A program made the translations under genes and the position numbers. The notes below the pieces were generated by a model that saw nothing but the letters and a program-made list of their open reading frames with translations, had not been told where the DNA came from and made no database searches. From a virus: a DNA stretch of 48,932 nt. The DNA is taken from positions 1 through 48,932 of the IMG/VR virus record IMGVR_UViG_3300037458_000314; one strand, written 5' to 3'. Shown here piece by piece: positions 1 through 48,932 of the stretch; within the stretch, counting starts at the first letter, position 1; every line of letters begins with the position of its first letter.

Positions 1-127
1 TTCCGGTTCCGCCCGGCGTAATTCCGCCCAACCAGACCGCGCTGGCAGCGGTGGCCGCCCAACAGCCGGCTGCAGAGCCCGTCATGGGCGGCGCAGGCGC
101 TCCGGAGGCGGCTGTGGCCCCTGTGGC
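1..127. repeat. Left copy of an exact 127-bp terminal overlap (identical to 48806..48932)
   Basis: Bases 1-127 recur verbatim at 48806-48932. A CDS reads in frame through the junction, so the window is one 48,805-bp circular unit plus 127 bp of redundancy. Confidence 0.95.
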
Positions 128-752
128 GCCCCCTGCCCCGCAGACCGGCCCACAGGCCGCCGTAGCGCCTCCTGGCTCGGCTTCCGGAGTGAAGACGCTG
201 GTCCCCGGCAACCCGCAGAACAAGGGGCTGCCCGAGCATCAGTCCCGCAACCTGTTCTTCCTCGACAGGATGCGCTTGGGGCACCAGGAGATGGCGCGGG
301 TGCTGGGCAACCAGGCGCCCTCGCTGGCCGGGTTCGCACTGGCGGCGCCGAAAGAGGGGCTTTGGTCGACGTTGGCGACGAACGCCCTTGCGCCCGACTC
401 GGCCAAGCAGTTTATGACGGGTGCGCAGCAGTTCATGTCCGCCGTCCTGCGTAAAGATACGGGCGCCGCGGCGCCGTTCCACGAGTACCCGCAATACTGG
501 GTCCAGTTCATCCCGATGCCGGGGGATTCGCAGGCGCTTCTCGCGCAGAAGGCGCAGGCCCGCGCGGTGGCAATGCAGTCCATCGAGCGTGGCTTGCCAC
601 CGGAGATGGTTATGGCGAGCGCACAGTCCATCGCCGGATCGCCGCAGGTGTCTCCAGCAGTCATGGAGCAGATGATGGCCTTGTCTCGGTCAATGAGCAG
701 TGGTGCAGACTCGCGTTCGGCTGCTGACGCCCTCGTCGGCTTCGGGAGGTAA
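1..752 (+). CDS. 3' part of a wrap-around CDS (starts at 47983; 524 aa in the circular molecule); hypothetical virion-module protein
   Basis: The frame of ORF 51..752 matches the open frame from ATG 47983 after subtracting the 48,805-bp unit. TAA at 750-752. Ala/Pro-rich middle; sits in the virion/ejection gene block. Confidence 0.7.
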   Translation, partial: PVPPGVIPPNQTALAAVAAQQPAAEPVMGGAGAPEAAVAPVAPPAPQTGPQAAVAPPGSASGVKTLVPGNPQNKGLPEHQSRNLFFLDRMRLGHQEMARVLGNQAPSLAGFALAAPKEGLWSTLATNALAPDSAKQFMTGAQQFMSAVLRKDTGAAAPFHEYPQYWVQFIPMPGDSQALLAQKAQARAVAMQSIERGLPPEMVMASAQSIAGSPQVSPAVMEQMMALSRSMSSGADSRSAADALVGFGR

Positions 753-755
753 GAA

Positions 756-3023
756 ATGCCCCTGTCCCCGGAAGACACGCAGCGCCTCGACACTTATGCG
801 CAGTGGCTCCTGGACAACCAGGCGCTCCAGGGCTCGCCGGACTGGGTCACGGTGGCCAATGCCTACCGGGGTCTGCGGCAGCAGGAAGTGGCCGGCACCC
901 AGCCTGCGCCGACGGAGGGCCTTACCAACGACCAGTCCGGCACGCTCGGCACCTTCGCGGGCGGCGCGGTGGAGGGCAACCCGTTCGTCGCCGTCCCGGA
1001 CCTCGTCACGCAGGGTGTGGGCTGGCTCGGCAAGAAGACCGGTCTCTACCCGGAGGACTACGAGATTCCGCAGATCGGCCCGTGGCTGTCTGAGCAGTTC
1101 GGGCTGAGCCCTGACCGGGACAATTGGGCCTACCTGGCCGGGAACATCTTCGGCGGCGGTGTTGGCGGTGGCGCGAGACAGATCGCAGCACGGACCCTAC
1201 AAGACGGCGTCCGCGCTGGGCTCGGCCAGACGGCGCGTGTCCTGGGGCAGGAGACGCTGGCAACCGCGGGCGGCCTGGCTGGCGCCGGCGCCGGCGGGGC
1301 CCTCGGTGGTGATGTCGGTGCCATCGTCGGCGGCCTCGCCGGCGGTATCACTCCGGAGGCCGCGCGGGCCGGGTTCAATGCGGGCACGCGCACCGCCTTC
1401 GGCCGCTCGGACGGCGCGAGCGGCGCGGTCTACGACGCCCTGATCCGGAACGAGGTGCCTCCGTCCGCTGGCCTCGTGGGCGGGCGTGGCGTGCCCTACC
1501 TGGAGAACGCGATGGGCTTGGCTCCCGTCCTGGGTGGCCAGGTGATTCGTCGGCAAGAGCGGCAGGTGGCTCAGGTCGGCGACATCCTGCGGCAGACCGC
1601 CGGTGGGATGCGAACCAACAACGTCGGCGCCCCGCCCCAGCCCCCGGACATCATGGCGGGACACCGGGGCGAGCCGGCGCAGATGCGTCCGGTTCCGCCC
1701 AATCCGGAAGCCTGGAATCAGCCGCGCCTCGGGGCGGCCGGTGTCGCGACGGATGACCTTGGCCAGCAAGTCCGAGACATCGCCGGGAACCACCTGGCGC
1801 AGACCCGAGACACGATCTCCCGGCAGAACACGGCGCTCGAACAGACCATCGGGGCGAACACGCCCATCCCGGTTCAGCCGACGATCAACCACCTGCAGGG
1901 GATGCGCGGCCAGCAGTCGACGGGCATCCAGGACATCATCGACCGGGACGTGGGGAGTCTGGAGCGAGCCCGGGGAGAGCATCAGCTGCCGGTGGATCAG
2001 GCGCTGCACTCGCAGCTCTCGCAGACACGCAATCAGGTCATGTCTCAGCTCCAGGCAGAGCGTGGCCGGATCAGCCCGGACCCCCGGAACATCGCCAACC
2101 TGGAGCGGCAGCTGCGCACGCTGGAGACACAGATTCGCGAGAACTACGGGCTGCCCTATGGCCAGATGCGGCGGCAGCGCACCGAGATGGGCGAGCCGCT
2201 GCACGGCAGCACGCGCGGCATGGCGGCCGGCGAGAAAGCGCAGGCCTACCGGCCGATGACCGAGGCGCTGGAGCAGGCTGCCGATCAGGCGGGCATCGGT
2301 GACGACTTCCGTCGCTGGCTGAGCGAGGAGTCGCAGCTGTATGCCCGCCGCGGGTCGCTGGCAGAAGGCGGTGATCTGGCGCAGTCGCAATCGCTGATCG
2401 ACATGAAGACCAACGCCGATGTCTTCAACTGGGTCATGGGCACCAAGCACAAGGCAGTCGAGAAGTTCGACTTCCTGCAACGCGCCGCTGGTGGCCCGGA
2501 CACCCCGCGGTGGCGGCAGTTCGTCGGCGATTTCTATGAGCGGCTTGGCCGGGCCAACCCGGGCGAACAACTCACCTCCGGGGCCAACAACGCGAACGCG
2601 CTGGAGACATTCTCCCCGAAGACGTTTCATCGCAACTGGGAGGACCTGGATCAGGGTCTGAAAGACATGCTGCGGCAGGTGGACCCGGACCTCGTGCAGC
2701 GCATCGACGACACCGTGCTGCTGTCCAGTGCGCTGAAGGAGCGCGGCAAGGCGTCCAACCCGTCTGGCACCACAGCTGCCGCGCTGCCCTACGGCATGGT
2801 CGCTGGCGGCTTCGGCCTTGGTGGGCTTGGTCCAACCGGCGCGTTGATGTCGGCTGGCAGTCTCCAGGGGATGATCAGCACCCTGCTCTCCGACGCTTTC
2901 TCCCGCGCCGTTGCGAACCGCACGGTGCCGTTTTCCACCCGAATGCAGCAGCAGATCGAGCAGCTGGCCGGTCGTGCTGGTGGTCTGGCTGTCAACGAGC
3001 TGCGCGACGAGGAGGCGCAATAA
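756..3023 (+). CDS. Large Gly/Ala-rich and coiled-coil virion protein (putative internal/ejection protein)
   Basis: 755-aa ORF. ATG 756 lies 7 nt after GGGAGG. High GC3. Gly-rich N-terminal third followed by long heptad-like helical region. The antisense 629-aa ORF is Arg/Val-rich noise. Confidence 0.6.
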   Translation: MPLSPEDTQRLDTYAQWLLDNQALQGSPDWVTVANAYRGLRQQEVAGTQPAPTEGLTNDQSGTLGTFAGGAVEGNPFVAVPDLVTQGVGWLGKKTGLYPEDYEIPQIGPWLSEQFGLSPDRDNWAYLAGNIFGGGVGGGARQIAARTLQDGVRAGLGQTARVLGQETLATAGGLAGAGAGGALGGDVGAIVGGLAGGITPEAARAGFNAGTRTAFGRSDGASGAVYDALIRNEVPPSAGLVGGRGVPYLENAMGLAPVLGGQVIRRQERQVAQVGDILRQTAGGMRTNNVGAPPQPPDIMAGHRGEPAQMRPVPPNPEAWNQPRLGAAGVATDDLGQQVRDIAGNHLAQTRDTISRQNTALEQTIGANTPIPVQPTINHLQGMRGQQSTGIQDIIDRDVGSLERARGEHQLPVDQALHSQLSQTRNQVMSQLQAERGRISPDPRNIANLERQLRTLETQIRENYGLPYGQMRRQRTEMGEPLHGSTRGMAAGEKAQAYRPMTEALEQAADQAGIGDDFRRWLSEESQLYARRGSLAEGGDLAQSQSLIDMKTNADVFNWVMGTKHKAVEKFDFLQRAAGGPDTPRWRQFVGDFYERLGRANPGEQLTSGANNANALETFSPKTFHRNWEDLDQGLKDMLRQVDPDLVQRIDDTVLLSSALKERGKASNPSGTTAAALPYGMVAGGFGLGGLGPTGALMSAGSLQGMISTLLSDAFSRAVANRTVPFSTRMQQQIEQLAGRAGGLAVNELRDEEAQ

Positions 3024-3496
3024 TGCGGATGGAAGGCCATGATGAGGAGCGCGAGCTGCGCGACATTCACCGACGTATCGACTCACTCAAGGAGGAGAAC
3101 GAGCGACAGTTCAATTCCTTGACCGAGAAGCTCCACGCGCTGGAGGTCGCAATCGCCCGTGGCGGGAAATTTCCGGCGCAAGCTACGGTCGCGGCTGTGG
3201 CGCTGGTTCTGGCCGTGATCGGGCACGGCGCCGTGCTTTATTCCGAGCTGCAAGCCACCAAGATGCAGAGTGCTACGGCGTATGGTTTGGTGGAGGAGCA
3301 CATCAAGGGGCTCGGAGTGAGGCAGCAGCAGTGGGCAGTGCTCGACGAACGGGTGAAGTCCCTGGAAGGTCGAGTCGTAGGCAAGTCGGAGCTGGGCTGG
3401 CACAAGCCCGACCATGATGCCTACGCGGCTGTCGTGGAGGAGCATTTCCGCCACGTCGAGACACGGCTGCGTGCGTTGGAGGAGAAGAAGCGATGA
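3023..3496 (+). CDS. Membrane-anchored coiled-coil protein next to the lysis genes (possible spanin-like or lysis accessory protein)
   Basis: ATG overlaps the upstream TAA (TAATG). One central TM segment (AQATVAAVALVLAVIGHGAVLY) is flanked by charged helical regions. Its stop overlaps the endolysin start (ATGA). Confidence 0.5.
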   Translation: MRMEGHDEERELRDIHRRIDSLKEENERQFNSLTEKLHALEVAIARGGKFPAQATVAAVALVLAVIGHGAVLYSELQATKMQSATAYGLVEEHIKGLGVRQQQWAVLDERVKSLEGRVVGKSELGWHKPDHDAYAAVVEEHFRHVETRLRALEEKKR

Positions 3497-3975
3497 GCTT
3501 CGACCGTGCGCTTCCCGTCATCATGCGCAACGAGGGCGGCTACTCCGACCACGATGCCGACCCTGGCGGCAAGACGAAGTTCGGCATCACGGAGCAGACT
3601 GCCCGCTCGTTCGGCTACACCGGCTCGATGATCGACCTCCCGCGGGAGTTCGCCGAGAACGTCTACCGCAAGGGGTACTGGGACGCCTGTCGGTGCGACG
3701 AGCTGCCCTGGCCGCTCGCGCTCTGTGTCTTCGACGCCGCGGTGAACACGGGGCCGAAGCCTGCCGCCATGCTGCTGCAACGAGTTCTGCAGGTGAAACA
3801 GGACGGCGTTATTGGGCCTGTCACCATTGCAGCGGCTCGGCACTCGTCGGACTACACCGTCACCGCGTACATGGCGGAGCGGGCGGCGTACTACCAGAAG
3901 CTGCCCAATTACGATGTCTTCGGCAAGGGCTGGCTGCGCCGCCTGTTCAGCACCCTCATGGAGGGCATGACATGA
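3493..3975 (+). CDS. Endolysin, glycoside hydrolase family 108 N-terminal domain plus PG_binding_3-type C-terminal domain
   Basis: N-terminus MRNEGGYSDHDADPGGKTKFGIT is the GH108 signature (EGGY..D.GG.T..GI). The C-terminal part has VKQDGVIGPVT, typical of the associated peptidoglycan-binding domain. Confidence 0.9.
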   Translation: MSFDRALPVIMRNEGGYSDHDADPGGKTKFGITEQTARSFGYTGSMIDLPREFAENVYRKGYWDACRCDELPWPLALCVFDAAVNTGPKPAAMLLQRVLQVKQDGVIGPVTIAAARHSSDYTVTAYMAERAAYYQKLPNYDVFGKGWLRRLFSTLMEGMT

Positions 3976-4376
3976 ACCCGTTGATCCTCGCGCCCATCCT
4001 CGAAATCGGCAAGACGCTCATCGACCGGTTGTTCCCCGACGAGCAGGAGCGGGCCAAGGCCGAGCTGGAGCTGCTGCGGCTGACGCAGGAGAACGACATC
4101 AAGCTCGTCCTGTCTCAGCTGGAGGTGAACGCCAAGGAGGCCGAGAACCCGAACCTGTTTGTCTCGGGCTGGCGCCCGGCGGCTGGTTGGGCCGGTGTCT
4201 TTGGCCTCGTCTACACCACGGTACTGCACCCATTCTTCACCTGGGGCGCAGCGGTGAAGGGTTGGCCGATACCCCCGGTGATCGACACCGATCTGCTGTG
4301 GATCGTGCTGACCGGAATGCTCGGCATCGGCACCATGCGCTCCTATGAGAAGGTCCGGGGGGTGGCCAAGAAGTGA
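3972..4376 (+). CDS. Holin, GTA-type 3-TM holin family (as I recall the family)
   Basis: ATG 3972 overlaps the endolysin stop (ATGA). 134 aa with an N-terminal amphipathic/charged region and then hydrophobic segments (WAGVFGLVYTTVLHPFF, LLWIVLTGMLGIGT). Lies immediately after the endolysin. Confidence 0.65.
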   Translation: MNPLILAPILEIGKTLIDRLFPDEQERAKAELELLRLTQENDIKLVLSQLEVNAKEAENPNLFVSGWRPAAGWAGVFGLVYTTVLHPFFTWGAAVKGWPIPPVIDTDLLWIVLTGMLGIGTMRSYEKVRGVAKK

Positions 4377-6184
4377 GCCTCGCCAACGTCTTTCGCCGGT
4401 TCGTTGGTGGCAGCGATCAGCTGCTGGACGAGGCTGTCCGGAAGGCGAACTTCGACCGCTGGCACAAGCAGTCGAAGGTGAAGCAACCGGTCTACCACGC
4501 GACGATGGCAGACGAGGACTTTGACACGTTCGCGCGTGGGGATATTGGCTACCACTTCGGGACGAAGGGCGCGGCCGAGGACCGGTTCTCCTCTCTCGGT
4601 GCCAAGGGCGCGATGTGGGATGAGCCGGAGTATCTGGAAGGTGCCCGGGTTCTTCCCGTGCATTTGTCCCTCCAGAATCCTATCCACTTGCCAGACATGG
4701 GCGGGTGGGATGTGCCGCAGCGATGGCGCGAAGATTTCCTGGCACAGCCGGACGAGGATCTGGCTCGGTGGTTTCCAGACCCGTACCTGCGGAACGACAT
4801 CCAGATGGCCGCAGAGACGGCCCTTGGGCCTAGGTTCGACCCCAATCCCGCCTTCGCAGAAGAAATACGCCGCATCCTGAAAGCGCACGGTTATGACGGG
4901 GTGCAGTACCGCAACGCCTACGAAGACCCGGGCCGGATGTCTTACATCGCCTTCGAGCCCACCCAGATCAAGTCGGTCTTCAACCAGGGGACGTATGACC
5001 CCACCAACCCCAGCTTCCTGAAGGCTGGCGCCGGTGGCGCTGTCGGCCTGGCGGCGTTGGGCGGGTCCGAAGACACGGAGGCCGCCCCCGGTTTCCGGCT
5101 CCAGAACGTGATGTCCATGCTCCGGCCCATCGACGAGGTGAAGGCTGCCGTCGGCAACCCTGTCTTGGGCGAGCAGACCTACCCGATGGCCGAGCTGATC
5201 CTGGAGCAGTTCCAGAAGGCGCAGCAGCAGGGCGTGTCTCCGCGGGACCTCCTCAAGTCCTACGGCATCACCACCTCCTCGGTGCAGCGCGGCGCCCTGG
5301 ACGCCGGCCAGTTCCCGCCGACCATGCGGGGCGGTGAGACAGGCCTGCTTCGGCCCGAGGACGCGATGGCGAACTGGTTCACCTCTCCCCCTGGGCAGGA
5401 CTACCTGGACTCGACCCTGGCCGGGGCAACGGACCCGGCGACGGTGCAGAACCTCCGGGAAGGGTTCCGGCCCTATGGCATGGCCGATGTCTTGGCCGGG
5501 CAGATGCTGCGGGCTGGAGACACGGTCCTGCCCGACCTCCCTGTCTTCCAGCAGATGATCGCCGGCGGGATGTCTCCAGACGAGGTCCTGGCCTACTTCG
5601 CCACTGCCGGGACGGTCCCGGGCATCGGCCCGGTGAAGGCCGGCTTCCAGCTGCCCATGCTCGGGCGGGGCGACCTCCCGGTGCCGGACGCCAACCAGCT
5701 CAACCTGCACCTGGCGCCTGGCGGCAAGAATCTCGTCGACGAGCTGAACCCCCGGCAGAAGGCGCAGGTGGTGAAGGAGATCGCCAACCGTCAGTCCGCC
5801 ATCGGGATGCAGATGCCCGAGCGGTACGAGCCGCTGCGGCAGTACCTGACCCACCACGATGTCTGGGACCGCACGCTGGGGACGCAGACCACGCACCAGC
5901 CGATCATCAACGCCATGCGCTACGGCGGCATGGGCGGCGCGGCGGCCGGTCTGGGGGCGTTGGCCTCGCCCGGAGACACACAGGCCGCTACACTCAGCCG
6001 GGAGATGTCTCACCAACAGCCCCAGGTGCCTCCAGTGACGACAGCCGTCAGCGACCTCATTCGGGATGCCGTTGCCGACCCGGAGAATGCGCTTGGGCTG
6101 CTCGGGTTGTTCGGGTCGATGCTGACGATGCCGCGCTCGCTGGCGGGCCCGGAGGCCGGGCGGCATAGCCCGACGTTCTACTGA
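4373..6184 (+). CDS. Large virion-module protein with an N-terminal domain resembling ART-PolyVal (ADP-ribosyltransferase-like domain of phage polyvalent proteins)
   Basis: GTG overlaps the holin stop (GTGA). Motifs VYHAT..DFDTF, GYHFGT, VLPVHLSLQNPIHLPD and GYDGVQYRN..E......YIAFEPTQIKSV fit my recollection of the ART-PolyVal pattern. The C-terminal 400 aa are unassigned. Confidence 0.5.
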   Translation: MSLANVFRRFVGGSDQLLDEAVRKANFDRWHKQSKVKQPVYHATMADEDFDTFARGDIGYHFGTKGAAEDRFSSLGAKGAMWDEPEYLEGARVLPVHLSLQNPIHLPDMGGWDVPQRWREDFLAQPDEDLARWFPDPYLRNDIQMAAETALGPRFDPNPAFAEEIRRILKAHGYDGVQYRNAYEDPGRMSYIAFEPTQIKSVFNQGTYDPTNPSFLKAGAGGAVGLAALGGSEDTEAAPGFRLQNVMSMLRPIDEVKAAVGNPVLGEQTYPMAELILEQFQKAQQQGVSPRDLLKSYGITTSSVQRGALDAGQFPPTMRGGETGLLRPEDAMANWFTSPPGQDYLDSTLAGATDPATVQNLREGFRPYGMADVLAGQMLRAGDTVLPDLPVFQQMIAGGMSPDEVLAYFATAGTVPGIGPVKAGFQLPMLGRGDLPVPDANQLNLHLAPGGKNLVDELNPRQKAQVVKEIANRQSAIGMQMPERYEPLRQYLTHHDVWDRTLGTQTTHQPIINAMRYGGMGGAAAGLGALASPGDTQAATLSREMSHQQPQVPPVTTAVSDLIRDAVADPENALGLLGLFGSMLTMPRSLAGPEAGRHSPTFY

Positions 6185-12582: not shown

Positions 12583-12620
12583 AAAACCCGCGGGGTCAGC
12601 CGCTTGGACAACCCCGCGGG
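12582..12620 (-). terminator. Intrinsic terminator facing leftward (possibly bidirectional)
   Basis: 9-bp GC stem (12587-12595 pairs with 12612-12620) with a 16-nt loop. On the minus strand it is followed by TTTTT (12586-12582). The stop codon of the leftward HTH ORF lies in the loop. Confidence 0.6.
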
Positions 12621-12808
12621 CTTCGGCCTACGTTGTACCCTCTCCCGTCAGTTGTCTTACCCCATACGGCGCGAGCGAGATCGCTCTGGGATAGCCCCTT
12701 GGTCAGCATCAACTGTTTCAGGCGGCGAGCGAACTGCTCAAGCTCCACCGTCTGCGCCTGGGTCCTGCCGGGCAGAAGTGGCTGGTCTGTGGTTTGGCGT
12801 CGTCCCAT
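12596..12808 (-). CDS. Short XRE/cI-type helix-turn-helix protein (70 aa), apparently truncated after the recognition helix
   Basis: FARRLKQLMLTKGLSQSDLARAVWGKTTDGRGYNVG matches the helix1-helix3 pattern of the XRE family. It has its own promoter, operator and terminator. Confidence 0.6.
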   Translation of the reverse strand: MGRRQTTDQPLLPGRTQAQTVELEQFARRLKQLMLTKGLSQSDLARAVWGKTTDGRGYNVGRSPRGCPSG

Positions 12809-12843
12809 TGTCCTTGGGCTCTCCTATCGGTGCCACTTCGGCA

Positions 12844-12860
12844 CCTAACAGTACGTTAGG
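12844..12860. promoter_or_regulatory. Operator-like palindrome CCTAAC-AGTAC-GTTAGG
   Basis: Perfect 6+6 inverted repeat with a 5-nt spacer. It overlaps the -10 of the leftward promoter. The same CTAAC-N5-GTTAG architecture occurs at 30257 and (imperfectly) at 25540. Confidence 0.5.
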
Positions 12861-12881
12861 TCCGTTGGGTCTGTCTGTCAA
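12853..12881 (-). promoter_or_regulatory. Sigma70-like leftward promoter for the HTH gene
   Basis: Minus strand reads TTGACA (12881-12876), 17-nt spacer, TAACGT (12858-12853), about 45 nt upstream of ATG 12808. Confidence 0.45.
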
Positions 12882-12886
12882 GGTGG

Positions 12887-12914
12887 TTGACAGGGGTTTT
12901 CAGGGTGTTATTTT
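12887..12914 (+). promoter_or_regulatory. Sigma70-like rightward promoter for the replication/early block
   Basis: Perfect -35 TTGACA (12887-12892), 16-nt spacer, TATTTT (12909-12914). Lies back to back with the leftward -35 (TGTCAA-N5-TTGACA). Confidence 0.55.
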
Positions 12915-12945
12915 TCTGGAGTGTCTTCCCTGGAGCCCGACACCG

Positions 12946-13194
12946 ATGACAACCACCGACACCCAACCCGTGAAGTGGAACTACCGCAAGCTGATCAACC
13001 TGCTCGGGGGAACCTCCGGGATCAGGTCCCTGTACCAGCAGTTTGGCGTCCCTCCCCCTTCTCAGGAAAACGTCCTGATGTGGATACGCCGAGACAGCAT
13101 CCCGTCCAACCGGATGGCGATGCTGACCTACTTCCTGGAGGAGGTGAAGGGCATCCCCCTCACAGAAGTCCGGGACGACACGGGGGTCCTGTGA
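12946..13194 (+). CDS. Small putative DNA-binding protein (Cro/YdaS-like), first gene of the rightward early block
   Basis: In-frame ATG 12946 of track ORF 12604..13194. KLINLLGGTSGIRSLYQQFGVPPPSQENVLMWIRRDSIP resembles Cro/YdaS-type HTH (weak, by eye). Position is opposite the XRE-like gene. Confidence 0.4.
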   Translation: MTTTDTQPVKWNYRKLINLLGGTSGIRSLYQQFGVPPPSQENVLMWIRRDSIPSNRMAMLTYFLEEVKGIPLTEVRDDTGVL

Positions 13195-13670
13195 GCGGGC
13201 TGGTTACCCTCGGCATCGACCCCGGCATCACCGGAGCACTGGCCTTCTTGGACGGGGACGAACTCACCATCCACGACATGCCTGTCGTCGCCACCCGCAC
13301 CGGCCGGAAGCAGGTTTCCCCGCATCTTCTGCGCAGCATCATCGAGGCCTACACCCCCTCCGGTCGCCTGCGTGCGGTGGTGGAGGAGGTTCACGCCATG
13401 CCGCGGCAGGGCGTTTCGTCCATGTTCTCGTTTGGCCAGAGTTTCGGCGTGATTCTCGGCGTCCTGGCTGGCATGTACGTTCCGTTTGATCTGGTGTCTC
13501 CGGCTGTGTGGATGAAATCCGCCGGGGTGCAGTCGAAGACACGAGACAAGGATTTCTCCCGGACACGGGCGCTCTCTGTTTTCCCGAGACACGCGAACTT
13601 GTTCAGTCTCAAGAAATATCACGGCCGGGCCGACGCCGCACTGATCGCCTGGTACGGGCAACTTAAATAA
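13191..13670 (+). CDS. RuvC-like Holliday junction resolvase
   Basis: GTG overlaps the upstream TGA. Catalytic-type motifs LGIDPGITGA, VVEEV and GRADAALIAWYG match phage RuvC-fold resolvases. Confidence 0.8.
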   Translation: MSGLVTLGIDPGITGALAFLDGDELTIHDMPVVATRTGRKQVSPHLLRSIIEAYTPSGRLRAVVEEVHAMPRQGVSSMFSFGQSFGVILGVLAGMYVPFDLVSPAVWMKSAGVQSKTRDKDFSRTRALSVFPRHANLFSLKKYHGRADAALIAWYGQLK

Positions 13671-13730
13671 TTTGCCTTTTTCATTTTGTTGGCCTAGTCT
13701 CCTGGCGACACCGACACACCGGACACCCGA

Positions 13731-15062
13731 GTGGACTTGTACGATTTTCAGAAGAAGGGCGCCGACTGGCTTGCCGGCCAGCGCAACGCGCTGTTGGCCG
13801 ACGAAATGGGCCTCGGAAAGACAGCACAAGCCATCGTCGCGGCCCAGAAAATCGGGGCCGAGAAAATCCTCGTCCTCTGCCCCGCCGTCGCCCGGATCAA
13901 CTGGGTCCGCGAATTTAAACGCTGGGGCGGGATCACCGCGCAGGCGGCGCTGACCTTCAAAGACCGACCCCGGTCCAACGTCTACGTCCTCGGCTACCCC
14001 GCCCTGTCCGAGAAGGACCACCCGCTCCGGGCCGCAGTCCTGAAACACGAGTGGGACCTCCTGATCTGCGACGAAGCGCACTGGCTCAAGGGCCCTTCCG
14101 AGCGGACCAAGGCTGTCTACGGCAAGGAGTTCAACGGTGGGCCCGGCTCTCTCGTCGCGCAGGCCGATCGGGTCTGGCTGCTCTCGGGTACGCCCATGCC
14201 CAACCACGCCGGGGAGCTGTACTCCCACCTGCGGGCGCTCCAACCGCAGCGGCTGGCGCACCCGCACTTCCACCGGCCGCTCACCGAGTACGAATGGCAG
14301 GACCGGTTCTGCAACATCCGAGACAGTGACTACGGGCGGCGCATCGCCGGCAGCCGGAACATCCCGGTCCTGAAGAAGCTCCTGGAAGGCTGGGTGCTGC
14401 GCCGGCGGAAAGCCGAAGTGCTCACCGAGCTGCCCTCGATCAGCATCGTCAACACGGTGCTGTCCGGCACGGTCAACAAGGCCATCCTGGCCGAGATAGA
14501 ACACGAGCTGCGGACCATCCTCAACTGCCCGTCAGACGATGTCGAGGCCGTTGTCTCCGCCCTGAAGGCCGCGGCGGTGCACATGGGCCGAATCCGTCGA
14601 CTCACCGGCCTGCTGAAAGCGCCGCTGGTGGCCGACCACGCCCAGACGATCCTGGACGGTGGCGAGCCCAAGGTCATCGTCTTCGTCCACCACCTGGAGG
14701 TGGCCGAGACACTGCGCAAGGCGCTGCTGAACTACCACCCGGTCGTGCTGACCGGGCAGACATCGGCCGCCGCCCGGCAGACCGCCATCGACAGCTTCCA
14801 GGGGGACCCGGAGGTCCGGGTCTTCATCGGCCAGATCACGGCCGCCGGCACCGCCATCACCCTCACCGCTGCCAAGCATGTCTTGATGGCAGAGGCGGAC
14901 TGGGTGCCTGCGAACAACTGGCAGGCCATGTCTCGGGCGCATCGCATCGGCCAGCAGGACGGGGTGCTGGTCGAGTTTCTTTCCATCCCCGACTCCATCG
15001 ACGAAGCCATCAGCGAGGTCTTGACACGCAAGGCCCGCGACTTCGCCGCCATCTTCGACTGA
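13731..15062 (+). CDS. SNF2-family helicase/ATPase
   Basis: Motif I LLADEMGLGKT, motif II ICDEAHWLKG, C-terminal helicase motifs GGTAITLTAA and QAMSRAHRIGQ. Confidence 0.9.
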   Translation: MDLYDFQKKGADWLAGQRNALLADEMGLGKTAQAIVAAQKIGAEKILVLCPAVARINWVREFKRWGGITAQAALTFKDRPRSNVYVLGYPALSEKDHPLRAAVLKHEWDLLICDEAHWLKGPSERTKAVYGKEFNGGPGSLVAQADRVWLLSGTPMPNHAGELYSHLRALQPQRLAHPHFHRPLTEYEWQDRFCNIRDSDYGRRIAGSRNIPVLKKLLEGWVLRRRKAEVLTELPSISIVNTVLSGTVNKAILAEIEHELRTILNCPSDDVEAVVSALKAAAVHMGRIRRLTGLLKAPLVADHAQTILDGGEPKVIVFVHHLEVAETLRKALLNYHPVVLTGQTSAAARQTAIDSFQGDPEVRVFIGQITAAGTAITLTAAKHVLMAEADWVPANNWQAMSRAHRIGQQDGVLVEFLSIPDSIDEAISEVLTRKARDFAAIFD

Positions 15063-15071
15063 GAGGAACCC

Positions 15072-15578
15072 ATGCTATCCATCACGTTCGACTCGAAGGA
15101 CCACCTGTTCCAGCAGATCGCCGAGCTGGGCTGGATGCCCGAGGCACAGACCGTGTCTGCGGCACCACGCGAGCTGTCGGCGCAGGAGTTGCTGGACCGA
15201 CTCCAGGCGGCGCTGCCGGACCAGGAGATCACCCTGCTGCCGAAGAAGCGCGGCCCGGGCCGACCGAAGGGCAGCACGAAGGCTGCGGCGGCGGCGGCGA
15301 AGCCGGCGCCTGAGCCGGTAGCACCGCCTGAGCCCGCGCCGGCGGCCGAGACACCGGTGGAACTCTCCCCGGAAGACGCCATGAAGGCGGCGATGGACAT
15401 CCTCACCCCGATGTACAACGACGCCGTCGGGAAAGAGGCGGTCCTGAAGCTGCGGGATCAGTTCAACGTCAAGAAGTTCGCGCTGCTCCCCAAGGAGCGT
15501 GCACACGAACTGCTCGACGCCGCGCAGAAGCTGGCCGAAGTGATCGTTGTTCCGGATACCGACGAGGAGGGCCTGTGA
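15072..15578 (+). CDS. Hypothetical protein with an AT-hook-like motif
   Basis: KKRGPGRPKGS (GRP core) is followed by an Ala/Pro-rich linker. 168 aa. Its stop overlaps the next start. Confidence 0.65.
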   Translation: MLSITFDSKDHLFQQIAELGWMPEAQTVSAAPRELSAQELLDRLQAALPDQEITLLPKKRGPGRPKGSTKAAAAAAKPAPEPVAPPEPAPAAETPVELSPEDAMKAAMDILTPMYNDAVGKEAVLKLRDQFNVKKFALLPKERAHELLDAAQKLAEVIVVPDTDEEGL

Positions 15579-16723
15579 GTCACGCGGAGCTGTCTCCCAG
15601 TTCGGCCCACCGCTGGATCGCCTGTCCCCGGTCCGTCGTCCTGTCTCGGGGCAAGCCTTCGACGACCTCCGCCTTCGCGGCGGAGGGGACGCTCGCGCAC
15701 AGCCTGGCGGAGCGCGTGCTTCGGCACCGGGAAGACCACACCTGTCTGCTCGGCACCAAACACTCGGTCGACGGCTACGAGATCACCGTCAGCGAGGAGA
15801 TGATCGACGCGATCAGCCTCTACGTTCAGACCGTCGACGCTTACCCGCAGGGGCCCGGCGTGGAGGTCCACACCGAGCTGAAGGTGAAGCTCAACGACGA
15901 TGTCTGGGGAACGGCGGACTGCGTCATCTGGGATGGTGACGCACGACACCTGACCGTCATCGACCTGAAGTACGGGAAGGGCGTCCAGGTCGACGCGGAC
16001 GACAACGAGCAGATGATGATCTACGCGCTGGCCGCCGCGAACACCCGCGGGCTCGCGCCCAAGACCGTCTGCTGCATGATCGTGCAGCCGCGTGTCTCGA
16101 ACCCGGTGAAGAAGACCAGCTTCGAGTATCTGGACTTGCTCATCTGGGAGGAGATGACGCTCGCCCCAGCCATGCAGGCTGTCTCCGATCCATTCACCAA
16201 GCTCAACGTCGGCAACCACTGCCGGTTCTGCCCGGCCAAGCCGGACTGCCCGGAGCTGCGTGGCGAGGTCCTGAAGGCAGCGCAGATGGAGTTCGCCGAG
16301 ACACCACCGGAGCCGAGCACGCTCACGTCCGAGGCGCTGGGCAAGATTCTCGACAAGGCCGAGCTGATCGCAGCCTGGGTCAGCGCCGTCCGTGCCGAAG
16401 CCTCTGGCCGGATCGACCGGGGCGAGGCGGTGCCCGGGTGGAAGCTCGTGCCGAAACGGGCGATGCGGAAGTGGTTCGGACCGCAGGCGGTGGACGAGAT
16501 CAAGAACGCCCTCGGGCTCAACGACGCCGATGTCTACGACTACGAGCCGCGGACTGTCTCGCAGATCGAGAAGCTGGTGAACAGTCTTCTTGGCAAGGGC
16601 GAGTTCACCGAGAGGTTCGGCTCGCTGGTGGTGAAGGAGTCATCTGGCACGACGCTCGCGCCGACGGACGACCCGAGACAGGCAGTGCCGGCCGGACCCA
16701 AGACAGACTTCGAGGAGGTGTGA
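15575..16723 (+). CDS. PD-(D/E)XK nuclease, DUF2800/Cas4-like
   Basis: N-terminus LSPSSAHRWIACPRS, core DCVIWDG....VIDLKYGKG, and C-terminal Cys cluster CRFCPAKPDCPE. Confidence 0.85.
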   Translation: MSHAELSPSSAHRWIACPRSVVLSRGKPSTTSAFAAEGTLAHSLAERVLRHREDHTCLLGTKHSVDGYEITVSEEMIDAISLYVQTVDAYPQGPGVEVHTELKVKLNDDVWGTADCVIWDGDARHLTVIDLKYGKGVQVDADDNEQMMIYALAAANTRGLAPKTVCCMIVQPRVSNPVKKTSFEYLDLLIWEEMTLAPAMQAVSDPFTKLNVGNHCRFCPAKPDCPELRGEVLKAAQMEFAETPPEPSTLTSEALGKILDKAELIAAWVSAVRAEASGRIDRGEAVPGWKLVPKRAMRKWFGPQAVDEIKNALGLNDADVYDYEPRTVSQIEKLVNSLLGKGEFTERFGSLVVKESSGTTLAPTDDPRQAVPAGPKTDFEEV

Positions 16724-16724
16724 C

Positions 16725-16976
16725 ATGCCGACGTTCGGTGAGCTGTTCCCCAAGCACTTCGCCAAGGTTGATGTACAGGACCGACAGGTTGGCGGTGACC
16801 ACTACGCCAAGCGCGTCATCCAACCGTGGGACATCGTGGCGGAGTACGGGCTCGACTTCTGGGAGGGCAACGCCCTGAAGTACCTGCTGCGCTGGCGCGA
16901 GAAGGGCGGGGTCGAAGACCTCCGCAAGGCGCAGCACTACATCGACTATCTGATCGAACGAGAGGTGAACCGATGA
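16725..16976 (+). CDS. DUF3310-family protein
   Basis: GGDHY...IQPWDI....FWEGNALKYLLRWREKGGVEDLRKAQHYIDYL matches the DUF3310 signature. Confidence 0.8.
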   Translation: MPTFGELFPKHFAKVDVQDRQVGGDHYAKRVIQPWDIVAEYGLDFWEGNALKYLLRWREKGGVEDLRKAQHYIDYLIEREVNR

Positions 16977-17350
16977 CTGAGCTTGCTCACAACTATCTGG
17001 AAGACAGCACGATAGTCCGTGCGTCGGCGGATGATGATTACGAGATGCTGACTGCCGTGCGCGGTGGCTTCGCCGGGGTAATCGACGCCCTCGTGGATGA
17101 AGACTTTGGCCTCATCGACGCAATCAAGGACGTTGACGTTACCATCCAGCACGCATTCGGCACCCGCCCGCATCCGCAAGACACAGAGGAAATGCGGAAG
17201 GCATACACCATCCCTGGACCGTCAGGCTGTGGCGTCGTTGGAACTTCCCTGGAGGCCATCATTGACGTGTCAGCGAGCGTCATGCAGTTGGTTTACGCCG
17301 TCCACGACCTGACACAAGCTGTCCGCGAACTGAAGGAGGAAACCCCATGA
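16973..17350 (+). CDS. Hypothetical acidic protein (125 aa)
   Basis: ATG overlaps the upstream TGA (ATGA). In-frame part of track ORF 16826..17350. Confidence 0.65.
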   Translation: MTELAHNYLEDSTIVRASADDDYEMLTAVRGGFAGVIDALVDEDFGLIDAIKDVDVTIQHAFGTRPHPQDTEEMRKAYTIPGPSGCGVVGTSLEAIIDVSASVMQLVYAVHDLTQAVRELKEETP

Positions 17351-17688
17351 CTGACCAGACCACCAACCCCATCGACGTAGAAGAAGCTGCGCAGGCGCTG
17401 CGCGAGGTCCAAGACATCTGCCCGGGCTGCGCGAGGGCTGCCGACCTCCTGGAGCAGCTGCACAAGTCCAACCAGGAGCTGGGCCAGCTCGTGCAGCAGA
17501 CCAACCAGGCCGCGTTGTACTTCCTCAACCTCGGGGACCAGCTCGACGCCCTGTGGGTGAACCACGTCGCGCTGCTCACGAAGCCCGAGCGGACGACCGA
17601 GGAAGCGGAGCAGTTGGCCGGCACGCTGTACCAGATTCACAACCTCAGTCTGATCCGCCAGGCGGCCAGGCAGGCGCCCAAGGCATGA
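17347..17688 (+). CDS. Hypothetical protein (113 aa)
   Basis: ATGA coupling at both ends. High GC3. Confidence 0.65.
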   Translation: MTDQTTNPIDVEEAAQALREVQDICPGCARAADLLEQLHKSNQELGQLVQQTNQAALYFLNLGDQLDALWVNHVALLTKPERTTEEAEQLAGTLYQIHNLSLIRQAARQAPKA

Positions 17689-17882
17689 TCGTGCACATGC
17701 TCTTTGGGACTGGCGCCGTCTGTCTCATGCTCTGGGCGGCGCTGTCTCTCCGAGACATAGAACTCACCCTGATCTGCGGGCTGTTCGCCTGGGTCGCCAC
17801 GGTGGCGATCTACCTCGCCGCCGGCACCCAGATCGACCAGCTCCAGGAGGAGGTGAAGCGGCTCAAAAAATATTCTTCTTGA
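17685..17882 (+). CDS. Small two-TM membrane protein (65 aa)
   Basis: ATG 17685 overlaps the upstream TGA. Hydrophobic segments FGTGAVCLMLWAALSL and LICGLFAWVATVAIYLAA. Confidence 0.55.
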   Translation: MIVHMLFGTGAVCLMLWAALSLRDIELTLICGLFAWVATVAIYLAAGTQIDQLQEEVKRLKKYSS

Positions 17883-17907
17883 TTTTTCCTAACACTTTGT
17901 CTAGTGT
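17879..17907 (+). promoter_or_regulatory. Possible sigma70-like promoter upstream of the SSB/polymerase block
   Basis: TTGATT, 17-nt spacer, TAGTGT in an AT-rich gap. The spacer contains a CCTAAC half-site and the inverted repeat AACACT..AGTGTT. Confidence 0.35.
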
Positions 17908-17979
17908 TGTTTGTGTTGGGCGACACCGCCCGACCCGACGCAAAGACGACTGAATCGCCCAGACGAGAGGTATCAACGT

Positions 17980-30977: not shown

Positions 30978-31015
30978 CGGGCGGCGGGAGACACGGCCGC
31001 CGGTGGCGGCGGGCG

Positions 31016-31039
31016 CCCCCCACCCCCCGGCCCCCACCC
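31016..31039 (-). other. G-quadruplex-prone tract (minus strand)
   Basis: The plus strand has four C-runs (6, 6, 5 and 3 nt) separated by 1-2 nt: CCCCCCACCCCCCGGCCCCCACCC. Confidence 0.5.
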
Positions 31040-31126
31040 GCAGCCGCAAGCCGCGCGGACGCCCCGTCTCGCTACCATATGCGCAATTTTTAAGAAAAAC
31101 AGATAGTTAGCAGAGGTTTGGCCGGC

Positions 31127-42135: not shown

Positions 42136-43233
42136 ATGGCATTTACGCAGCAAGAACTCGACTCGATTGCCAACTCGGCAATCAACTACCACCTGAACAA
42201 GGGTGAGGTCTTCAAGCAGACCGTCCAGAACAAGCCGCTTCTGGCGCTGTTCGAGCGCAAGAAGAAGACGTTCCCCGGCGGCAAGGGTGCCATCACCCTG
42301 AACGTCAAGGGCGACTACGGCTTCCCGATCAACCGTTCGACGGGTGCCGATGTCACGGTGCCGTCTGGCGGTAGCGAGACGGTGAAGGGCTACACCCACG
42401 ACGACACGGTGCAGTTCTACACCCCGGCGAACGTCATCCAGGCGTCCTACACCTGGCGTGAGCATCACCTGGGTATCACGCTGACCCACACCGAGCTGAA
42501 GATGGACGGCATTTCGGTGACGGACACCAACGGCGAGGGTACTCGTTCGCACTCGCGGCGCGAGATGACCATGCTGGCCAACCTCCTTGAGGAGAAGCTG
42601 GACGACATGGCCGAGAAGTACGCCATCGACATGAATGCCCTGCTGTGGGGCGACGGTGGCGGCGACGCGAAAGCCCTGGCGGGTATCCGGTCCATCATTA
42701 CCGACAACCCGACGACCGGTACCGTTGGCGGCATCGACCGTGCTGCGGGCAGCGGCACTTACGCCTGGTGGAGGAACCGTTATCTGCTCAGCATCGCGTC
42801 CTCGCCGAACAACGGCGGCGTGCTGATCCAGAACCTCCAGAAGGAGTATCTGCAGCTGAAGCGGTACGGCGGCAACCCCGACACGTTCCTCGTTGGCTCG
42901 GACTTCCTCGACGCGCTGACGACCGAGATGCGGGCGAACGGCTACTACTCCGGCTCGGGCTTCGCCTCCGGTGGTGAGCTGTCCGTGGGCCAGCTGAAGC
43001 TGTTCGGCGTGCCGATCCAGTACGACCCGACCCTGGACGGGCTGTCCAAGTCCAAATACGGGTACTGGTTCGACTCCAACGCCATCTTCCTGATGACGAT
43101 GGAGAACGAGTGGCGCCGGCAGCATACCCCGGCCCGCCCGGCGAGCCAGTTCGTGCTGTACCGGTCGATCACCAGCACCGGCCAGCTGGTGGCGAATCGG
43201 TGCAATAGCTCGGGCGTGTACTCTATCGCTTGA
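42136..43233 (+). CDS. Major capsid protein
   Basis: 365 aa after the scaffold gene. GAGG RBS. Followed by the strongest terminator in the genome. Contains no copies of the otherwise abundant rare-codon hexamer. Confidence 0.75.
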   Translation: MAFTQQELDSIANSAINYHLNKGEVFKQTVQNKPLLALFERKKKTFPGGKGAITLNVKGDYGFPINRSTGADVTVPSGGSETVKGYTHDDTVQFYTPANVIQASYTWREHHLGITLTHTELKMDGISVTDTNGEGTRSHSRREMTMLANLLEEKLDDMAEKYAIDMNALLWGDGGGDAKALAGIRSIITDNPTTGTVGGIDRAAGSGTYAWWRNRYLLSIASSPNNGGVLIQNLQKEYLQLKRYGGNPDTFLVGSDFLDALTTEMRANGYYSGSGFASGGELSVGQLKLFGVPIQYDPTLDGLSKSKYGYWFDSNAIFLMTMENEWRRQHTPARPASQFVLYRSITSTGQLVANRCNSSGVYSIA

Positions 43234-44278: not shown

Positions 44279-44279
44279 C

Positions 44280-47222: not shown

Positions 47223-47981
47223 ATGTGCACCGGACTTGAGTGGCTGGCTGTTGGTCTTACCGCGGCCAGCACTGTCTCCAGCATCGTTGGCCAGCAGCAA
47301 GCGCAGCAGGCGCAAGAGGCTGCTGTCGCGCGTGCGCGTCAAATTGCACAGCAGGAAGAAGCGCGACAGAAGCAGATGCGTGAGCAGGCGCAGCAGATGC
47401 ACCAGAAGACGGTGCAGCAGCATGGTCGTGAGCAGTACGACCAGGGTTTGCAGCAGGAGGCCACGCGACTGGAGGAGGCCTACCAGCCGTCCGGTACTGA
47501 GACGACGCTGGCCGACACCATGCTGTCTGGCCAGAACCTCGGCACTGACATCGTCAAGGACGACGCTGCGAAGCAGATGGCGGGCGCGGTGAACGAGGCC
47601 AAGCAGCGGGCGGCGAGCCTGGCGAAGCTGTCTGCCTACGGCGAGGTGGCCACCGGCCGGCAGCTTGGGAGACAGGAGACAGGGAACCAGCTCGATGTCT
47701 TGAACAACCTGCGCCGCGGCGGCCTGACGGCCTCCCAGTTCGGTCAGCAGGCGATTATGAACAACCTGCCGCAGTACAGGCCTAGCCCGCTGTCTACCCT
47801 GCTCTCCGCGGGTGCCTCGCTGGCGTCGTTTGGCGCCGGCCTCGGGGCGGGAACGAACGTCATCAACCCGGCCGGTGCCGCCGCGGGAACCTCGATGTTC
47901 TCCATGCCGGGTGGCCTGATGCAGACGGCGCCGTACAATCCGAGCCTGTGGACCAGCATGAAAGCTGGCATGGGGTTCTGA
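47223..47981 (+). CDS. Hypothetical membrane-anchored Gln-rich coiled-coil protein (252 aa)
   Basis: Strong RBS AAGGGAGGG. N-terminal hydrophobic segment LEWLAVGLTAASTVSSIV followed by a Q/A/E-rich helix. Confidence 0.65.
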   Translation: MCTGLEWLAVGLTAASTVSSIVGQQQAQQAQEAAVARARQIAQQEEARQKQMREQAQQMHQKTVQQHGREQYDQGLQQEATRLEEAYQPSGTETTLADTMLSGQNLGTDIVKDDAAKQMAGAVNEAKQRAASLAKLSAYGEVATGRQLGRQETGNQLDVLNNLRRGGLTASQFGQQAIMNNLPQYRPSPLSTLLSAGASLASFGAGLGAGTNVINPAGAAAGTSMFSMPGGLMQTAPYNPSLWTSMKAGMGF

Positions 47982-47982
47982 A

Positions 47983-48932
47983 ATGCCCATCTTCCTGACG
48001 CAGGACCCGCAGCTCAACGTCGCCCTGAAGGGGCTGGCGGACGCCATGTTCCCGGACCCGGCCACCGAGATGATGGCCGCGTACCGTCGCGCCGGAACCA
48101 TGAAGGTGCTTCAGGAGGGGGCAGACCTCCGCACGGCTGCCGAGGGAAGAAACCGGCTCTACGACATGATGGGCAGCCAGGCGTTCAACGTGGCCGACCC
48201 CAACAATCAGCGGCTCATGTACCGCGAGATGTTGCTGGGCGGCCCGGACACGATGAAGCAGGCCCCTGGCTTCCTGACCGCTTTCACCGGCGCCGGGGCG
48301 CCCGGCATCGACCAGGGCTACCTGGCGCAGATGCAGACCTCCTCCGGGGTGCAGCCTTATGGTGGCACCCGGCCCGGCTTCGAGCTGGGCCAGCGCACCG
48401 AGCTGGGCAAGGCCGGCATCATGGCAGGCGCCCACGTTCGGGGTGCGCAGATCGCGGCCAATCAACGGCAGCGCGAGTTCGAGATGTCGCCCTTCAAGCT
48501 GGGCGAAAACGATGTTGGCATCGTCCCGCTGGCCGGGCAGGCCATGTTCGGCGGGAAAGAGGTCATCGTGCCGCCCGCCGGCGCCGCGCTGGGGGCTGGT
48601 GGCGGCCTGCCCACCTACAAGGGCACCGGTGTCGAGCAGCAGGACACGAACATCGTGATGTCCTACAACGCCATGAAGAACCGTGGCATGGCGATCCCGC
48701 AGGACCTGGAACTGGCCTACGCCATCGCATTCACGCGGCTCTACGGGCCTAAGACCGAGCGCCGGACTGACGATCGGGGCAACATCGTCGAGATTCCGGT
48801 GTCTGTTCCGGTTCCGCCCGGCGTAATTCCGCCCAACCAGACCGCGCTGGCAGCGGTGGCCGCCCAACAGCCGGCTGCAGAGCCCGTCATGGGCGGCGCA
48901 GGCGCTCCGGAGGCGGCTGTGGCCCCTGTGGC
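47983..48932 (+). CDS. 5' part of the wrap-around CDS (continues at position 1..752)
   Basis: ATG 47983 is 2 nt after the previous stop. Open to the end of the window and in frame with 1..752 across the 127-bp overlap. Not listed in the ORF track because it has no stop within the window. Confidence 0.7.
   Translation, partial: MPIFLTQDPQLNVALKGLADAMFPDPATEMMAAYRRAGTMKVLQEGADLRTAAEGRNRLYDMMGSQAFNVADPNNQRLMYREMLLGGPDTMKQAPGFLTAFTGAGAPGIDQGYLAQMQTSSGVQPYGGTRPGFELGQRTELGKAGIMAGAHVRGAQIAANQRQREFEMSPFKLGENDVGIVPLAGQAMFGGKEVIVPPAGAALGAGGGLPTYKGTGVEQQDTNIVMSYNAMKNRGMAIPQDLELAYAIAFTRLYGPKTERRTDDRGNIVEIPVSVPVPPGVIPPNQTALAAVAAQQPAAEPVMGGAGAPEAAVAPV
48806..48932. repeat. Right copy of the exact 127-bp terminal overlap
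   Basis: Identical to 1-127. Confidence 0.95.

Follow-up and report, generated by a model that had tools for sequence, protein, structure and literature searches.

The DNA considered here raises the question of why a phage genome should carry one short word many times more often than chance predicts, and what might read it. It is the whole of IMG/VR virus record IMGVR_UViG_3300037458_000314, a stretch of 48,932 nucleotides that we call the window (positions 1 to 48,932), and it represents a complete phage genome with a G+C content of 64.5%. An earlier note had counted by hand about 130 copies of the hexamer GAGACA/TGTCTC, evenly split between the orientations, where base composition predicts about 20. 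A machine count found 69 copies of GAGACA and 63 of TGTCTC, 132 in all, against 18.5 expected from base composition and 26.6, 24.0, and 44.3 expected from Markov models of orders 1 to 3, respectively; it is thus not far below about 100, the level that the note had named as the sign of a miscount. As a null for coding DNA, synonymous codons were shuffled 300 times within each of the 44 coding sequences. Coding DNA holds 111 copies of GAGACA, compared with 20.9 ± 4.1 in the shuffled versions (z = 21.8; shuffle maximum, 33), and neither these nor the Markov models (24 to 44), both of which the note had proposed as checks, reproduce the count.

The effect is visible at the level of single codons, where the note had described the word as forcing rare ones. 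After GAG, threonine is encoded 31 times by ACA, 13 times by ACG, once by ACT, and never by ACC, whereas the threonine codons that do not follow GAG are mostly ACC (400) and ACG (348), with only 64 ACA. TCT likewise accounts for 42 of 118 serine codons after xTG codons but for 81 of 776 elsewhere. The word is read in all frames and both senses, in keeping with what had been claimed, although the frames AGA-CAx and TGT-CTx are rare (15 and 5 sites). The codon-shuffle results therefore place the force at the DNA level, as the note had argued: selection or drive acts on the DNA, overriding codon preference, rather than on a peptide. The word is a strong nontranslational force on codon choice, and host prediction based on codon usage should allow for it. 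The enrichment is no artefact, since a search of the window for Nextera adapter remnants found none and the same enrichment recurs in four independent assemblies of the phage, in one cultured phage, and in one prophage of a bacterial isolate. The signal is real, strong, phage-intrinsic, and family-wide.

The unit on which this force acts differs from the one that the note had proposed. The pentamer AGACA/TGTCT is by far the top 5-mer of the window, with 249 copies against 72 to 81 expected, and it exceeds the codon shuffles 3.85-fold (z = 23.8). The preceding base is G in 132 cases, A in 74, C in 36, and T in 7, which amounts to a preference for a purine, and AAGACA (74 copies against 13, or 5.6-fold over the order-1 expectation) is enriched to the same degree as GAGACA. 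Farther upstream there is a weak preference for C or S, and the C or G that the note had remarked on the 5' side of GAGACA is borne out by the counts of CGAGACA (57) and GGAGACA (51). The single-base variants of AGACA are all reported at or below expectation; the neighbor ratios, 0.42 to 1.54, are scattered across all five positions and across transitions as well as transversions, with no strongly depleted precursor. The selected unit is the pentamer AGACA/TGTCT, best written as RAGACA, and not the hexamer.

The hexamer had been chosen because about 130 of about 160 GAGAC pentamers are followed by A. The proportion is correct (132 of 162 GAGAC/GTCTC, the next base being G in 20, T in 9, and C in 1), but it also reflects a second effect, the separate purging of GGTCTC and CGTCTC. 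GAGACC (GGTCTC) occurs once where 34 to 41 copies are expected, and GAGACG (CGTCTC) occurs 20 times where 33 to 52 are expected; this near-absence and this deficit are a separate restriction-site avoidance, and GGTCTC is also missing from relatives with a different word. Other sites are avoided in the window as well. Nine palindromic hexamers (ACGCGT, AGCGCT, CACGTG, CGTACG, CTCGAG, GACGTC, GAGCTC, GCATGC, and TCATGA) have zero copies, with 15 to 47 expected of each in two-strand counts, while GCGCGC is found 4 times instead of 126 and CTCTTC not at all instead of 26 times.

The word belongs to the phage, not to the host. A prophage of the same family in Brucella anthropi OA9225 carries AGACA at 5.7 per kb (120 copies against 42 expected), whereas 100 kb of the B. 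anthropi plasmid pOANT01, which has the same G+C content but is the plasmid of another strain and not a chromosome, carry it at 1.2 per kb (121 against 134). The note had held that an equal enrichment in the host would reduce the pattern to compositional amelioration; the enriched prophage and the plasmid at its expected level contradict this. Since the plasmid is at its expected level and the word shows no polarity, Chi-like or uptake words of the host are also disfavored. Phages with GAGACA were found at 57%, 64.5%, and 68% G+C, and near relatives of equal G+C carry different words. A search of plasmids for prophages of the family found none.

The capsid protein of the phage has thousands of homologs at 55 to 61% identity in aquatic and soil metagenomes. 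Related sequenced isolates are Microcystis phage Mae-Yong1326-1 (L007, OP028995), with a capsid identity of 57%, and the more distant Rhizobium phage RHph_N65 (40%). Mae-Yong1326-1 has a word of its own: AGGACA occurs 133 times against 22 expected (codon-shuffle z = 17.8) and GGACA 382 times against 151 (z = 20.1), while AGACA is depleted (14 against 45). Loci of the family were collected as ±10 kb around anchor genes, mainly the major capsid gene (42136-43233, plus strand, in the window), and capsid-anchored loci were counted if they were at least 12 kb long. A locus was scored as positive when a nonpalindromic hexamer reached a z of at least 8 and at least a 3.5-fold excess. By this measure 23 of 49 capsid-anchored loci carry a word, but only 2 among 51 distant phages whose primase is of the RepB type. 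The words are GAGACA, AGACAC, AGACAG/TAGACA, AGGACA, GGGACA, GGACAA, GGACAC, TGGACA, GTGGAC, GGACGT, CGGACG, TGACAC, AGGCAC, GGGACC, GGGGAC, CGGGAC, and GGAGAC, and a GAC (GTC) core is common to most of them. The scan anchored on DNA polymerase returned distant phages only, none of them of the capsid family, and the scans anchored on cobS yielded few loci.

The words change over short evolutionary distances. Within a clade whose capsid proteins average 86% identity, sub-groups differ in their word: the AGGCAC sub-group has AGGCAC at 4.4-fold and AGACAC at 0.85-fold, the AGACAC sub-group has AGACAC at 5.0-fold, and the GGACAC sub-group has GGACAC at 4.4-fold and AGACAC at 0.24-fold. Each sub-clade is at or near background (0.2 to 1.8 times) for the words of the others, and the words are reported to differ from one another by single bases. 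Each sub-clade genome has been rewritten for its own word. What is new here is that the trait is family-wide and comes with lineage-specific words; literature searches, with the papers on Mae-Yong1326-1 outside that check, found no earlier description of such a word.

Words inflated in loci of other phage groups were noted in passing. Polymerase-anchored loci with 67% G+C (L104-L148) have TCGACA/GTCGAC at about 3.5 times expectation, CCAGG reaches 2.2 times in two loci (L138/L146), and CTCGAG reaches 5 to 6 times in two others (L285/L286). The G+C content of Mae-Yong1326-1 is 71.8%, though this phage was reported on Microcystis aeruginosa, whose own G+C content is about 42%. Word positions near one end of its record recur near the other, shifted by 48,456 bp, which points to about 366 bp of terminal redundancy.

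The sites are balanced between the strands and loosely scattered. In the window, AGACA occurs 120 times on the plus strand and 129 times on the minus strand, about 5 copies per kb in all; within genes it stands in sense orientation 117 times and in antisense orientation 104 times, with a similar balance in Mae-Yong1326-1, and no switch of strand polarity was seen along the genome or around the putative origin. The mean gap per strand is about 385 nt and the largest 2.6 kb. A preferred spacing or orientation of pairs, of the kind given by paired or dimeric sites, was searched for in the window and not found, so the sites act singly. The note had called the pattern patchy, and the six stretches that it named do hold no GAGACA, but the unevenness is weak, with an index of dispersion of 1.3 to 1.65; 42% of random placements give a GAGACA void at least as large as the largest one observed (2001 bp), and the largest AGACA gap (1632 bp) has a P of 0.05. 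The density is about 4.8 per kb in genes and 8 to 9 per kb in noncoding DNA; with twice the density between genes, coding constraint limits the signal and does not create it. Word positions are not conserved between relatives of about 70% identity, even those with the same word. What is maintained is the density or number of sites, not their positions.

The major capsid gene lacks AGACA/TGTCT altogether, and the polymerase, primase-helicase, and exonuclease genes, whose G+C content at third codon positions is as high, carry 7 to 10 copies per kb. The word-poor stretches, among them the capsid gene and a portion of the tail fibre gene, show no enrichment for the word of another lineage, which gives no support to their recent import. 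A role of the word as ribosome-binding site was rejected, since it lies within 30 nt upstream of the start in just 2 of 42 genes.

The highest concentration is found in the noncoding region at 30207-31117, between the divergent cobS-like gene and the gene that starts at 31118. These 911 bp contain 13 AGACA/TGTCT, more than any stretch of similar length elsewhere in the window (and 12 GAGAC/GTCTC, as the note had counted; its coordinates proved to be correct), together with AT-rich stretches. Within it, positions 30923 to 30995 form an array of GTGTCC, GTGTCTC, and then GGGACAC followed by three copies of GGAGACAC/GGGAGACAC, spaced 10 to 17 nt apart, inverted at first and direct later, again with AT-rich stretches nearby. 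The cumulative GC skew has its minimum close by, at about 27 to 30 kb, and the equivalent noncoding region of Mae-Yong1326-1 is the densest of that genome in its own word. Judged by these sequence features, 30207-31117 is a candidate origin or control region.

An asymmetric word of 5 to 6 nt that switches by single bases, with near-misses left at background, calls for a sequence-specific protein whose specificity drifts. With genes annotated from PHROGs, Pfam, and NCBIfam, our predicted reader is the AEP primase-helicase of the phage (21917-24226, plus strand; the reading frame opens at 21707, and the start is inferred from a homolog), of which the word would be the set of recognition sites. 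We put this forward tentatively, as a reading with somewhat less than an even chance. An AEP Prim-Pol domain is followed in the protein by an all-helical middle region and an AAA_25 helicase domain, the latter similar to the RSF1010 RepA helicase (PDB 1g8y, E = 2e-6); the C-terminal segment is predicted, at low confidence, to be helix-helix-helix-strand-strand. Among 1.8 billion representative proteins it has one close homolog (61% identity), and the contig that encodes this homolog shows the same excess of GAGACA/AAGACA. Word-based searches with the whole protein and with its N-terminal 440 amino acids returned one relative only, and a scan of viral and metagenome contigs with the two-sequence alignment returned nothing. 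The ortholog in Mae-Yong1326-1 is 23 to 27% identical, compared with 39 to 47% for DNA polymerase, SSB, SNF2, and RuvC. At the same genome position, other relatives encode a RepB-type AEP primase with an SF3 helicase and a conserved Cys/His motif, and these phages have words with a GGAC core. In the RepB-type primase-helicases (L171:4571-7228 and five relatives), an invariant C-P-x4-H ... C-x-H-x2-C lies between the primase and helicase domains, and by its residues it looks like a primase zinc finger. Several words of the family begin with GTG on the template strand (GTGTCT, GTGCCT, GTGTCA, and GTGTCC) or contain the T7 site GTGTC.

The mechanism that we propose is as follows. A fast-evolving replication protein of the phage, most likely the AEP primase-helicase, would recognize the word, either as TGTCT(Y) on exposed single strands through its recognition module or in the duplex through its C-terminal domain, and this binding would start primers or load the helicase. 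By chance alone, a site of 5 to 6 nt would be spaced at 1.7 to 5 kb per strand, and selection would have raised it to about 1 per 0.4 kb per strand. Dense sites on each strand would allow either strand to be primed wherever forks or displaced strands arise, which fits a phage that encodes a full recombination module. The array in the noncoding region at 30.2 to 31.1 kb may serve as the primary loading site or origin. As the specificity of the reader drifts, the word of the genome would follow. It is possible, though we are doubtful, that the word works as a private address that, through the AEP primase-helicase, effectively restricts priming or helicase loading to the phage's own DNA; the further step, in which a one-base shift in the reader's specificity is followed by the rewriting of the whole genome (AGGCAC to AGACAC to GGACAC), is part of this address reading and is held with the same reserve.

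Several results weigh against the primase-helicase as reader. In all comparisons, the similarity of the primases is confounded with overall relatedness, as other genes follow the same clades. When 15 gene families of the structural region were compared with the AGGCAC and AGACAC groups, they mostly followed the groups weakly (S = 0.03 to 0.21, with P < 0.05 for 13 of the 15 and 0.053 for the other two) and no gene stood out, and among six relatives none of the identities of primase, cobS, cobT, integrase, repressor, SNF2, and RuvC tracks the word alone. Distant phages with an AEP primase-helicase lack any such word, and one family member with the primase and cobS/T (L174/L214) shows just 1.5-fold enrichment. 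The lack of strand polarity around the putative origin is a further point, since a purely lagging-strand priming signal would be expected to show polarity in theta or rolling-circle replication; the primase model therefore needs bidirectional forks or recognition of the duplex. However, T7 too is without a clear lagging-strand bias, so polarity is a weak criterion. The spacing of AGACA is slightly clustered (coefficient of variation, 1.17), not regular. The AlphaFold model of the primase-helicase, built from a two-sequence alignment, is poor, with a mean predicted local distance difference test score (pLDDT) of 35, and the helix-bundle and winged-helix assignments were therefore read from secondary structure only. 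Finally, the primase sites of T7 are enriched only 1.1- to 1.6-fold in its genome, so that priming through a genome-wide word would be a new phenomenon and not a T7-like one. The note had suggested priming among its hypotheses by reference to T7-type primases; it remains the best candidate, given the GAC/GTC core of most words and the encoded AEP primase-helicase. The observation made in the note is confirmed, and its interpretation is partly supported.

Other explanations have to be weighed against recognition by the primase-helicase. The word could be the dispersed site of another DNA-binding protein of the phage, acting outside priming in coating, compaction, protection, or global regulation, and here the candidates are the cobS/cobT-like AAA+/vWA pair with its long N-terminal extension or a protein without a known family, of which the window encodes many large ones. 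Strand symmetry and the lack of polarity are what duplex binding would be expected to give; in both complete genomes the word is densest in the noncoding control region beside cobS, and cobS/T is specific to the family that bears the trait and absent from the word-free relative RHph_N65. However, single asymmetric sites of 5 to 6 bp, unpaired and without fixed spacing, are unusual for helix-turn-helix (HTH)-type binders, and the Cro/DicA-like HTH protein remains conserved where the word changes. As no DNA-binding domain was recognized in cobS/T either, and the family member L174/L214 is only weakly enriched although it has both genes, we consider this explanation rather unlikely. It is improbable that the word is the target of covalent modification or site-specific nicking by an unrecognized phage enzyme, with the copies spreading a mark over the genome. 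The words do resemble the targets of asymmetric adenine methyltransferases of the Type III, Type IIL, and BREX kinds, which are nonpalindromic, 5 to 6 nt long, and usually contain AC (EcoP1I, for example, recognizes AGACC), and, besides the many proteins without a known family, the window encodes an ART-PolyVal protein (4373-6184). However, Mae-Yong1326-1 shows the same phenomenon without that protein, and, as the note had stated, no methyltransferase, nickase, or base-modifying enzyme is recognizable among the window proteins, nor is any glycosylase-like or transferase family. Moreover, a modification target needs no enrichment, the DNA would break into fragments if both strands were nicked at 5 per kb, and the complete absence of nine palindromic hexamers indicates that the phage DNA is exposed to restriction and not shielded.

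A context-specific bias of mutation or repair that varies between lineages, through errors of the family A polymerase or the prim-pol or through repair like the very-short-patch (VSP) type, might also hold the word at an equilibrium excess. Such a drive would account for an excess that is genome-wide, strand-symmetric, phage-specific, and stronger where coding constraint is lacking, and for positions that are not conserved between relatives; VSP repair inflates CCWGG-related words in Escherichia coli, and CCAGG is in excess in loci L138 and L146. This explanation, too, we regard as improbable, because no one-step neighbor of AGACA is strongly depleted (ratios of 0.4 to 1.5), no Vsr or methyltransferase gene was found by the same annotation, the clustered arrays in the control region suggest use, and known polymerase error spectra do not resemble a specificity of 5 to 6 nt that changes by a single base from one close sub-clade to another. 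That the phage mimics a Chi-like, uptake, or architecture sequence of its host, or has been ameliorated toward it, is very unlikely: such sequences are the classical over-represented oligomers and phages can be enriched in host Chi, but the B. anthropi plasmid is at expectation where the family prophage is enriched, GAGACA is shared over 57 to 68% G+C while near relatives of equal G+C differ in word, and there is no polarity. Least probable of all, and partial at most, is a by-product of restriction avoidance, in which the codons of purged GGTCTC and CGTCTC sites were replaced by GAGACA. GAGACC and GAGACG do fall short of the codon shuffles (1 against 33.6 and 17 against 34.5), the codon pair GAG-ACC never occurs, and other sites are extremely avoided. 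The deficit of about 50 sites is nevertheless smaller than the GAGACA excess of about 90, AAGACA is in excess while AAGACC and AAGACG are above expectation, and Mae-Yong1326-1 has lost GAGACC (0 against 22) without gaining GAGACA (8 against 11), so that avoidance accounts for the GAGACN skew only in part.

The rest of the genome gives the setting of the word. An exact 127-bp direct repeat at the ends of the window (1-127 and 48806-48932) represents an assembly overlap, which indicates that the genome is complete and circular, with a length of about 48.8 kb. The identical contig is present in the metagenome-assembled genome GCA_025490995.1, in two JGI metagenomes, and in one Logan assembly, and a megablast of 16 kb of the window gave no matches among 50,697 phage records. 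Structural and lysis genes include those for terminase, portal, major capsid protein, tail fibre, endolysin, and a gene transfer agent (GTA)-type holin; the ART-PolyVal ADP-ribosyltransferase domain protein of 603 amino acids is encoded downstream of the lysis genes. The plus strand carries a recombination and replication module with a RuvC-like resolvase, SNF2 ATPase, RecB-family exonuclease, DUF3310, and gp2.5/Enc34-like SSB (13206-18555), and the replication genes continue with the family A DNA polymerase (19351-21285), which holds 14 sites (7.2 per kb). On the minus strand lie the cobT-like vWA protein (26698-28701) and its partner, the cobS-like AAA+ ATPase with a 200-amino-acid N-terminal extension (28698-30206), which is family-specific, adjoins the word-rich noncoding region, and is our secondary candidate reader. 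This pair is situated in the early region and is conserved in the phage family (26698-30206 in the window; 871-4337 in Mae-Yong1326-1). The cobT-like gene contains a tandem (GGC GAA GGC CAG)n coding repeat at about 27650-27900, and the 8-mers GCGAAGGC (37 copies) and AAGGCCAG (23 copies), examined as a second dispersed word, were rejected since they stem from it. The Cro/DicA-like HTH protein of 75 amino acids (12599-12823, minus strand) is homologous to the Mae-Yong1326-1 repressor; opposite its gene, the plus strand has a longer open reading frame (12604-13194). Many relatives have an integrase, but none was found in the window. The window is poor in GACTC/GAGTC, which forms part of the CcrM site GANTC (52 against 90 to 138 expected), and in CACA/TGTG (152 against 317 to 380); together with the GTA-type holin and the prophage relatives in Rhizobiales, these depletions fit an alphaproteobacterial host.

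If a protein of the phage does read the word, the specificity of the whole family of primase-helicases (or of another reader) would be legible from genome statistics, and a virus would have a means of tagging its own genome for replication, or for some other transaction, with no need for chemical modification. Under the private-address reading, it would also be a case of genome-wide coevolution of a replication enzyme with its recognition word, for which we found no description in any virus. The single-base switches between close sub-clades would then offer a natural series for locating specificity residues, which may be of use in the engineering of primases and DNA binders, and the private word could serve as a host-independent signature for binning and classifying metagenomic phage contigs and for spotting recombination in them.

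Compared with known systems, the word shares with the stoperators of cluster A mycobacteriophages, an analogy that the note had drawn, the presence of many dispersed asymmetric sites within phage genes. Stoperators, however, are 13 bp long, number in the tens, are oriented with transcription, and are bound by the immunity repressor, whereas the word is 5 to 6 nt long, is present in 130 to 250 copies, and has no orientation bias, and the Cro/DicA-like HTH protein stays conserved (E = 1e-15 to 1e-34) in lineages whose words differ; the analogy thus fails. Chi, the KOPS sequences, and uptake sequences are likewise short words far above chance that run across genes against codon preference, but they are host-owned and occur throughout the host genome, and Chi and KOPS are polar, whereas the phage word is not enriched in host-type DNA and lacks polarity. 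Restriction-site avoidance has shaped the same genome and the same pentamer family (GGTCTC and CGTCTC), but its effect is depletion, and neither AAGACA nor the relatives' words can be explained by it.

The closest parallels lie among primases and initiators. T7 gp4 primase sites (GGGTC, TGGTC, and GTGTC) have a GTC core, as most family words do; GTGTC is contained in AGACAC, TGACAC, and GGACAC, and the RepB-type relatives share with the T7 enzyme a zinc-finger-like Cys/His motif. However, the T7 primase is of the DnaG/TOPRIM type and that of the phage is of the AEP type, the additional specificity of the phage word sits 3' of GTC on the template strand, and besides the low enrichment of its sites, no 5- or 6-mer of T7 exceeds a z of about 7. 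The alpha protein of phage P4 is both primase and helicase, and its C-terminal domain recognizes the origin by binding the iterons of ori and crr. The phage primase-helicase would resemble it in combining primase, helicase, and the predicted C-terminal helix-helix-helix-strand-strand segment in one polypeptide, and the array in the noncoding region is iteron-like, but the P4 iterons are found only in ori and crr, whereas the word is genome-wide. In AEP prim-pols, a helix-bundle domain recognizes a short word on the template, next to which synthesis begins; the word is GTG for pRN1 ORF904, and GTG(A/G) and TTTGGTTA are read by the NrS-1 prim-pol (PMC8718748). The AEP Prim-Pol of the window is fused to a helicase domain like RSF1010 RepA, and relatives carry primases of the RepB type, as RSF1010 does (RepB' with its ssiA/ssiB sites, and the RepA helicase). 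The family words are also short and asymmetric, several of them with GTG on the template strand, although they are 5 to 6 nt long and vary between lineages, and priming from them is predicted by analogy. As far as literature searches show, a genome-wide enrichment, or a set of sites of this density and spread, has not been described for T7, P4, pRN1, NrS-1, or RSF1010. By analogy with these systems, the phenomenon appears to work most like a set of recognition sites for a primase or initiator.

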